Sequence record: LC373201.2
Reading direction: 5' to 3' (one strand)
Source: Enterobacter phage EspM4VN
DNA: 64,000 nucleotides
Of the stretch, positions 59,399 to 59,519 are shown in pieces. The notes under the pieces were generated by a model. That model did no database searches. It was not told the DNA's origin and saw nothing but the letters and a program-made list of their open reading frames with translations. Each line of letters begins with the position of its first letter. Within the stretch, counting starts at the first letter, position 1. The position numbers and the translations under genes were made by a program.

Positions 59399-59519
59399 CA
59401 CATCTGTGACGTATCTCTTATCCGGATTCGAACCGGATTTATCCTGGCAGAGGAATCTAACCCCTTTACCTCGTGGCAACGAGGACGGTCAACAGACCTC
59501 AAGATACGTCACAGATGTG
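59399..59519 (-). ncRNA. tRNA-like element flanked by a perfect 17-bp inverted repeat
   Basis: CACATCTGTGACGTATC ... GATACGTCACAGATGTG encloses a 6-bp T-arm-like hairpin AUCCGG-UUCGAAU-CCGGAU and an anticodon-like hairpin CCUCG-UUGCCA-CGAGG (GCC); no CCA. Confidence 0.3.

Follow-up and report, generated by a model that had tools for sequence, protein, structure and literature searches.

The window analyzed here is a stretch of 64,000 nucleotides (nt) from Enterobacter phage EspM4VN (LC373201.2), a member of the Ackermannviridae that in the region of interest is 93% identical to Shigella phage Ag3 of the genus Agtrevirus. This region is a tRNA island, that is, a stretch of ~4 kb without credible genes other than four for tRNAs, which ARAGORN places without exception on the minus strand. 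The island is bordered by a gene of unknown function (190 amino acids) on one side and by small conserved open reading frames (ORFs) on the other, and these flanking genes are also on the minus strand. Within it lies the subject of this study, a 121-nt element that we call E (59399..59519, minus strand) and describe as a long-stem, four-hairpin, tRNA-like RNA module on the basis of its sequence, the z-score of its fold, and copies with the same ends in Taipeivirus phages. Upstream of E on the same strand are an RNA resembling transfer-messenger RNA (tmRNA) and encoding a peptide tag (59656-59951), which is unannotated and conserved across the Ackermannviridae; a sister hairpin, E2 (59566..59655), with a fold z-score of -5.8; and a 45-nt spacer, X (59521..59565). 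On the minus strand the order is E2, X, and E, so that two such hairpins stand in tandem. A plus-strand ORF of 185 amino acids spans E; it has no match in Pfam and a weak match to a 46-amino-acid PHROG located in the region of the tag RNA. The short minus-strand ORFs of E extend into non-conserved flanks, and the ORFs that neighbor E contain no RNA-related domain.

The initial annotation of this DNA reported a perfect 17-bp inverted repeat at the ends of E. We confirmed this, with CACATCTGTGACGTATC occupying 59399-59415 and its exact reverse complement occupying 59503-59519, and found that the repeat is in fact perfect over 19 bp (59398-59416 and 59502-59520). The resulting stem has 20 bp including one G-U pair, a U.G at the inner end that is the sole wobble, and is followed by a 2-nt bulge and three further pairs, giving a total of ~20-23. 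We estimate that a perfect inverted repeat of a 19-mer confined to 300 nt would arise ~1e-4 times in 64 kb. Moreover, the window has five inverted repeats of 16 bp or longer that are spaced and not palindromic, and four of them fall between 58.8 and 59.9 kb. RNA folding, proposed earlier as a check, gave an energy of -65 kcal/mol for the 141-nt stretch with E as compared with -39 ± 3.6 kcal/mol for dinucleotide shuffles. The z-score was -7.3 on the minus strand and -7.9 on the plus strand, and none of 200 shuffles folded as well. The clustering of the repeats and an energy far below that of the shuffles show that this region is special and that the repeat of E did not arise by chance.

Read from 5' to 3' on the minus strand, E begins with the 5' strand of its closing stem (59501..59519), the outer 13 nt of which (CACAUCUGUGACG) match a stem conserved throughout the family. 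The linker GA leads to a hairpin at the position of a D-arm (GGUC-UGUU-GACC; 59487..59498), which is present in both the minimum-energy and the centroid folds, and the linker GU leads to a 6-bp hairpin (CCUCGU-UGCC-ACGAGG; 59469..59484). A second hairpin with a T-loop-like sequence (AGGGG-UUAGAUU-CCUCU; 59449..59465) is tentative, since it appears in the minimum-energy fold and not in the centroid. Ten unpaired bases then precede the T-arm (AUCCGG-UUCGAAU-CCGGAU; 59420..59438), which adjoins the 3' strand of the closing stem (59399..59417) with AA in between. The T-arm had been recognized in the initial annotation, and the hairpin does exist; the strand on which it is to be read is the minus strand (59438-59420). 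Less fortunate was the description of an anticodon-like hairpin with GCC in its loop. This is the 6-bp stem closed by a UGCC tetraloop, not a 7-nt loop, and the tetraloop is GAAG in the other four copies of E.

E is like a tRNA in that its T-arm has the canonical loop UUCGAAU (UUCRANY), its parts are ordered as stem, D-position arm, middle arm, variable region, and T-arm around a four- to five-way junction, and it shares strand and locus with real tRNA genes. It is unlike a tRNA in having a closing stem of 19-20 bp compared with 7 bp, two unpaired nt between the T-stem and the closing stem, a D loop of 4 nt that lacks GG, and a middle arm with a non-conserved tetraloop. The variable region, measured from the 6-bp hairpin to the T-arm, is 30 nt long, and no CCA is encoded after the stem; both of these departures had been pointed out before and are correct. 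We therefore rejected E as a tRNA: the detectors are silent, there is no conserved 7-nt anticodon loop, and there is no 7-bp acceptor with a 3' NCCA. ARAGORN places none of its four tRNAs in the window at E, and the Rfam model RF00005 (gathering score 29 bits) had no match on 59380-59540 even at E-value ≤ 10. Descent of the head from one specific tRNA was also rejected, because all that is in common is a generic 11-nt T-loop box, GGTTCGAATCC, which also occurs in the phage's own tRNAs. When Rfam was searched with the whole window at gathering thresholds and with the region at E-value ≤ 10, E came up only in spurious microRNA-hairpin matches driven by the stem. It matches no Rfam family and is apparently undescribed.

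A search for copies elsewhere had also been suggested. BLAST against 50,697 phage records found E in four other phages only, all of them Taipeivirus (KWBSE43-6, K5lambda5, phi1_175010, and IME250), with a single copy per genome; E is thus present in 5 phages among ~740 Ackermannviridae records that match the region. The Taipeivirus copies are 90-91% identical to E, the match starts and stops exactly at the ends of the repeat, and the copies lie in a syntenic tRNA island with the same orientation relative to the tRNAs. E was not found by BLAST in 5,426 Escherichia coli genomes. Exact-pattern scans with two distinct patterns recovered the two known Taipeivirus genomes and no others from IMG/VR, and gave no match in 185,579 GTDB species genomes or in JGI metagenomes, and a covariance model of E run over 14 sources recovered the known copies only.

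The E of the window differs from the Taipeivirus consensus at 11 positions, none of which breaks a helix. Four of these make up two compensatory pairs in the long stem, where both strands have changed (G-C to U-A and G-C to C-G, from Taipeivirus to the window), and two make up a compensatory pair in the 6-bp hairpin (U-A to C-G in the same direction). Another four replace the loop of that hairpin, GAAG in Taipeivirus and UGCC in the window, and the last is at an unpaired position. Because the loop was replaced while the pairing was kept, it is the pairing that is conserved and not a GCC anticodon. The D-position hairpin, the second T-loop-like hairpin, and the T-arm are invariant in all five copies.

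The outer 13 bp of the repeat (CACAUCUGGGAGG / CCUCCCAGAUGUG) proved to be the stem of a hairpin that lies at the same place in most Ackermannviridae. In a catalogue drawn from 30-odd loci, at least five unrelated heads sit on this conserved stem. Head A is E itself (121 nt in total); head B (133 nt) has no T-arm; head C (89 nt) includes Kuttervirus genomes; head D (90 nt) is that of E2 in the window; and the Ag3 type (86 nt) also has no T-arm. Across 13 variants of the stem, 96.4% of the cells are paired and 9 of the 19 pairs have changed on both sides. In 500 shuffles these values were never attained, and pairing fell to 36-58% when the partner strand was slid. Thus, the inverted repeat, whose conservation in related phages was a question raised by the initial annotation, is kept in its outer stem throughout the family with extensive covariation. 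E behaves as a cassette, and loci L017 and L018, the flanks of which are 96-98% identical, have a different block between them. No sequence relationship links heads A, C, and D to one another or to a hairpin found in the tRNA region of a P1-like plasmid (L038 3118-3205). All four have a 19-21-bp stem, one or more hairpins, and a T-arm-like hairpin adjoining the 3' strand, with z-scores of -5.5 to -7.3. This recurring design and the compensatory changes argue that the tRNA-like head is more than junk.

The strand can also be read from these comparisons. In the minus sense the stem variants contain 16 G-U and 9 unpaired cells, as compared with 6 G-U and 19 unpaired cells in the plus sense, and the T-loops UUCGAAU, UUCAAGU, and UUCGAGU read correctly on the minus strand only. 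Since all tRNAs and flanking genes are on the minus strand as well, the balance of G-U pairs and the reading of the T-loops point to a preference for this strand. The possibility that E is a structured small RNA, offered among others in the initial annotation, is therefore supported by compensatory changes in two helices, by the covariation of the stem across the family, and by T-loop and G-U patterns that fit the strand of the tRNAs.

E reached this phage horizontally. From 59654 to 59399 the window is 90-92% identical to Taipeivirus loci, whereas both flanks are 93-97% identical to Ag3. Within the block, E2 and X together are 92% identical to the Taipeivirus-like locus L015 and E is 91% identical to L018; X is 86-92% identical to L015, L016, and L018 and absent from Ag3. 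Ag3 is also without E and has 59 nt where the window has 230 nt (59410-59639). A Taipeivirus-like block between Ag3-like flanks indicates that an Ag3-like phage acquired such a block. In addition, E precedes X in Taipeivirus and follows X in the window, which shows that the head also moved between neighboring hairpin sites. No target-site duplication was seen at E, which is flanked by CTC and AGC in Taipeivirus and by CAA and TCC in the window. The two compensatory changes in the stem make the arms of E unlike those of E2, and this divergence may reflect selection against mispairing between hairpins in the same putative transcript.

The stem shared with unrelated heads and the common design of several heads lead us to regard E as a horizontally exchanged, swappable tRNA-like head, and to see in it neither a miniature inverted-repeat transposable element (MITE) nor a pseudogene. 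E belongs best with the structured phage RNAs that mimic tRNA, and the way in which it evolves, by the swapping of heads on a conserved stem, is unusual. The explanation that we favor, with a probability of about 0.5, is that E is a tRNA-shaped head on a ~20-bp stem, made as a non-coding RNA from the minus strand and processed into a tRNA mimic, and that heads are exchanged through the conserved arms. The outer stem of E is that of the resident hairpin of the Ackermannviridae just downstream of the tag RNA, which bears unrelated heads in different phages, and these would be swapped by recombination via the conserved arms. An Ag3-like backbone took up a Taipeivirus-like block of E2, X, and E and so gained two tandem hairpins. 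The sequence comparisons establish that the structure is real and under selection, and they establish the covariation, the preference for the minus strand, the cassette-like behavior, and the horizontal origin. E would be co-transcribed with the tag RNA from a promoter-like site at 59951-59924 on the minus strand (TTGTCA-16-TATAGT), the hexamers of which are kept in 13 phages and which could drive the tag RNA, E2, X, and E. The transcript would end at a terminator-like hairpin just downstream of E (59383-59364, minus strand), a call made by consensus scan only. These two sites bracket the tag RNA, E2, X, and E, and it is plausible that all four belong to a single transcription unit. The long duplex would be a stalk for processing and stability, most likely a substrate of the host RNase III, as are the stems of rRNA and of its intervening sequences. 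Its near-perfect pairing over about two helical turns (19 perfect pairs plus a G-U) is what is expected of an RNase III stalk, and a role in processing, another possibility offered in the initial annotation, is plausible. The released RNA of 85-100 nt would then persist as a tRNA mimic, with its T-arm recognized by tRNA-binding factors.

Several observations weigh against this explanation. There are only three distinct sequences of E; helices 2, 4, and 5 are invariant and hence give no covariation signal; and the covariation of E taken alone is reached by 26 of 500 shuffles. The 90% identity to Taipeivirus may reflect recent transfer and not constraint. Heads B and the Ag3 type are without a T-arm, and tRNA-like character is therefore not universal for the hairpin. 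An A.C mismatch that recurs in the stem would pair as G-U if the plus strand were read. Calls of promoters and terminators stand at the level expected by chance in the region (4 vs 5.2 expected, and 7 vs 4.0), and we infer transcription, RNase III cleavage, and stability of E from its sequence and fold.

E may instead be a passenger, neutral or selfish, that is tolerated at the end of a functional hairpin, with a stem that matters and an idle head. Of the alternatives this one survives best, and we consider it unlikely. The intervening sequences of enterobacterial 23S rRNA are extensions of helices 25 and 45 that are excised by RNase III and discarded, and E is like them in that a conserved helix carries sporadic, horizontally exchanged, unrelated extensions of ~90-150 nt with long stems. 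The sporadic occurrence of E among the Ackermannviridae, the presence on one stem of unrelated heads that in some cases have no tRNA-like features, and the differences in head between close relatives are all consistent with a passenger. However, E is not in rRNA, its cleavage by RNase III is a prediction, and several Ackermannviridae heads have a common tRNA-like design. The substitutions in the head of E are compensatory or in loops, and the arrangement of stem, hairpin, and T-arm recurs in three Ackermannviridae heads and in the P1-like plasmid, which would be hard to explain for junk.

It is improbable that the inverted repeat acts as DNA, forming a cruciform or a single-strand hairpin for recombination or for an endonuclease, with the heads as cargo and the RNA fold incidental. 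The arms do mark boundaries of mosaicism, and their perfect complementarity would serve DNA equally. Phage pSal-SNUABM-02, moreover, has a gene for a homing HNH endonuclease inserted here, which also fits such a role. However, a palindrome bound by protein should keep its sequence, and yet nearly half of the stem pairs (9/19) covary. In addition, the strand of the tRNAs has over double the number of G-U pairs, and the inner 6-bp hairpin has a compensatory change of its own. As annotated, the HNH gene of pSal-SNUABM-02 (MT857002) lies inside the island, in a segment (64006-67006) homologous to 58500-60700 of the window, and its presence there is in agreement with the region being an insertion hotspot.

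The tag RNA lies in a ~310-nt block upstream of E, in the same orientation, which is the most conserved sequence of the region, with 82-97% identity across genera. The block includes the promoter-like site, a 26-bp hairpin (59913-59832, minus strand), and a start-less frame, GCA AAC GAU ... UAA, that encodes the tag ANDDVVLMAA followed by a stop (59748..59780, minus strand). In other phages the tag is ANDNTFLAVA or ANDNAYLAVA, again followed by a stop, and changes at third positions are synonymous (GCA/GCU, AAC/AAU). Downstream of the tag, our reading of the alignment gives a pseudoknot-like pairing with one compensatory change (CCGA/UCGG to CCAA/UUGG in L012). The matches of the tag RNA to the Rfam tmRNA models are below threshold (29.4 bits, E-value = 6e-4 in a 951-base search), ARAGORN does not call it, and no canonical tRNA-like domain was found in the Ackermannviridae RNA. 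In L018 (7720-7937), and also in L008, L011, L012, and L013, two tandem tRNA-like modules of ~95 and ~125 nt, with a T-arm and an encoded CCA, are placed between the tag RNA and the conserved hairpin. These modules are not called as tRNAs and are absent from the window and from Ag3; module 1 of Taipeivirus and other genera has a weak match to the tmRNA model (10.6-12.6 bits).

A 126-nt core of the tag RNA recurs, with 91-92% identity and without annotation, in 669 of the 5,426 complete E. coli genomes, and it also occurs in 603 plasmids. In E. coli 55989 (L037 3900-4354) this core lies in a lambdoid prophage between the genes for antiterminator Q and holin, where a long hairpin stands on either side of it; these two have nearly the same arms but differ in their heads. 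After the core comes a segment that scores 20.2 bits (E-value = 4.5e-6) against the tRNA-like domain of the tmRNA model. The P1-like plasmid (L038 2480-3900) has the core in its dmt-tciA tRNA region, where the tag is ANDDLMMVAA and several long-stem hairpins are present. The long-stem hairpins of prophage and plasmid have common arms (CACAACAGGUAAGRGC...) and different heads. A census from 2014 listed viral tmRNA only for mycobacteriophages and Bacillus phage G (PMC4131195), and our literature searches for tmRNA or non-coding RNAs of the Ackermannviridae returned methods citations only.

A very improbable explanation is that E serves the upstream tag RNA as its tRNA-like partner domain, the window being without the CCA-ended module 1. 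In the transcript that the two are presumed to share, E follows the tag stop at a distance of ~230 nt, and its T-arm (UCCGGUUCGAAUCCGGA) resembles that of the E. coli prophage tRNA-like segment that follows the homologous tag RNA (GCCGGUUCGAUUCCGGC). Module 1 is missing from both the window and Ag3. Like the tRNA-like domain of tmRNA, E has a T-arm and an acceptor-like helix without the function of an anticodon arm, and it adjoins a tag-encoding RNA. By contrast with that domain, E is a self-contained hairpin with no alanine identity pair (G3-U70), no encoded 3' ACCA, and no free 3' end, and the Rfam tmRNA models miss it at E-value ≤ 10. Moreover, Ag3 has the tag RNA with neither E nor module 1, and the E of Taipeivirus lies beyond two CCA-ended modules. 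Alanine identity was rejected as well: E2 and Ag3 alone have a G.U at the third putative acceptor pair, and it is not a conserved feature. Pairing between E and the tag RNA was also dropped: the complementarity of 11 of 12 positions between 59502-59491 in E and 59800-59789, just upstream of the resume codon of the tag, is at the regional chance level, is weaker in Taipeivirus (10/12), and shows no compensation.

A wider proposal, which we hold to be doubtful, is that the heads are interchangeable tRNA mimics on a processing stem and part of a new tag-RNA system of Ackermannviridae, lambdoid prophages, and P1-like phage-plasmids. If this is true, an arms race might select for the swapping of heads, which could serve, for instance, to decoy host factors that bind or cleave tRNA or to provide the tag RNA with alternative tRNA-like partners.

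Two further explanations have little left in their favor. The idea of a mobile or recombination element, also put forward in the initial annotation, holds insofar as a discrete unit has moved between genera and between neighboring hairpin sites; it fails insofar as the marks of a MITE are missing. That E is MITE-like DNA that landed in a tRNA locus is hardly credible. As in MITEs and in repeats like the enterobacterial repetitive intergenic consensus (ERIC), E is ~120 bp long, intergenic, and bounded by terminal inverted repeats; the 121-bp unit is discrete, the repeats are perfect, homology to Taipeivirus stops exactly at their ends, and the position of the unit relative to X has changed. However, E is unlike these repeats in being present once per genome, without target duplication, without copies in bacterial genomes or metagenomes, and without a transposase nearby. 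What looked like terminal repeats are the arms of a resident hairpin, common to other heads at one locus and holding other inserts elsewhere. The tRNA and classical MITE readings are excluded because they fail the tests that define them. Least probable of all is a decaying tRNA pseudogene, which would account for the perfect T-arm, the cloverleaf-like layout, and the location in a tRNA gene cluster, but a perfect extended stem of 19 bp with compensatory changes is the opposite of decay, and similarity to tRNAs does not go beyond the generic T-loop box.

Phage T4 co-transcribes, in its tRNA cluster, species 1 and 2 (rnaC/rnaD), which are stable structured RNAs of ~120-140 nt with unknown function. 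E is similarly a small structured RNA within the tRNA cluster of a lytic phage, but exchange of heads on a conserved stem is not known for the RNAs of T4. Closer in design are the bacterial Y RNAs of the Deinococcus Yrn1 type, in which the ends pair as a long stem at the place of the acceptor, together with a tRNA-like domain and its T-arm (Chen et al., 2014; PMC4201824). E likewise has a long end stem that carries a tRNA-like domain with a T-arm, and Y RNA-like genes are also found in phages. It is unlike YrlA in that its order is not permuted (YrlA has the T-arm first), and we recognized no conserved Ro-binding helix sequence in E. The Rfam model of YrlA (RF02553) had no match on E at E-value ≤ 10 and gave a weak match elsewhere, and no TROVE (Ro60) domain was found in the nine neighboring ORFs.

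In large lytic phages, annotation of a tRNA island usually amounts to a few tRNAs in otherwise empty DNA. Here, ~2 kb of the island is a mosaic of strongly folded, covarying RNA hairpins with tips that are exchanged between genera, and one recurring design of the tip mimics a tRNA in its acceptor and T-arm half. Should the RNAs prove to be produced and processed, they would constitute phage tRNA mimics of a new class, evolving as cassettes, and would bear on how phages handle host defenses directed at tRNA and translation quality control. The tag RNA, which standard tools miss and which E. coli prophages and plasmids contain by the hundreds, is a testable entry point.

Other long hairpins were seen in and around the island. 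The window has two, at 59129-59249 (arms of 22 bp) and 58853-58929 (arms of 20 bp), that have a common inner stem motif on the minus strand (CUCUGGAC/GUUCAGAG). In L008 and L013 the hairpin at 59129-59249 is replaced by ~317 nt of other sequence with its flanks kept, and this looks like a second swappable site. A hairpin of 111 nt with similar arms (AACAUCUAAGAGGGCUC...GAGCCCUCUCAGAUGUU) and another core is present in five metagenomic IMG/VR contigs (L020, L025, L026, L032, and L034), which are from uncultivated viruses of unknown affiliation. At 59960-60045 on the minus strand, a hairpin (CCUGUUGGU...ACCAACAGG) that is kept in Agtrevirus-like loci and not in Taipeivirus has an interior resembling the 5' end of E. 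coli tmRNA (GCUGAUCUUCCCGGAUUCGAAGG). We rejected 60030-60005 as a tmRNA 5' end, because it is inside this other local hairpin and absent from Taipeivirus.

The minus strand of the island also holds several atypical tRNA-like segments. A tRNA-like gene at 57062-57147 is not called by ARAGORN; it has an acceptor (GCGGGAG/CUCCCGC, then UCCA) like that of E. coli tRNA-Gly and a T-arm with UUCGAAU, irregular sequence of ~45 nt replaces its D and anticodon arms, and it folds no better than shuffles (z = -0.3). Next to it, at 57005-57062, is a small hairpin structure with the stem CCCC(C)UC/GGGAGGGG and a T-arm (UGUAGG-UUCGAUU-CCUACA) right after the 5' strand of the stem, a permuted arrangement that is unlike E. 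The tRNA-Ser(UGA) that ARAGORN calls at 58560-58639 is an atypical tRNA, below the Rfam tRNA threshold and with 24.5 bits to the tRNA-Sec model, and 60120-60209 has a weak tRNA-like match (22.8 bits). Finally, Ag3 (L001 3460-3625) has a 166-nt insertion relative to 58940-58949 of the window that gives a sub-threshold match to the Salmonella small RNA STnc100 (33.7 bits), and similar STnc100-like segments follow the long hairpins of the P1-like plasmid (L038 3891-4010).
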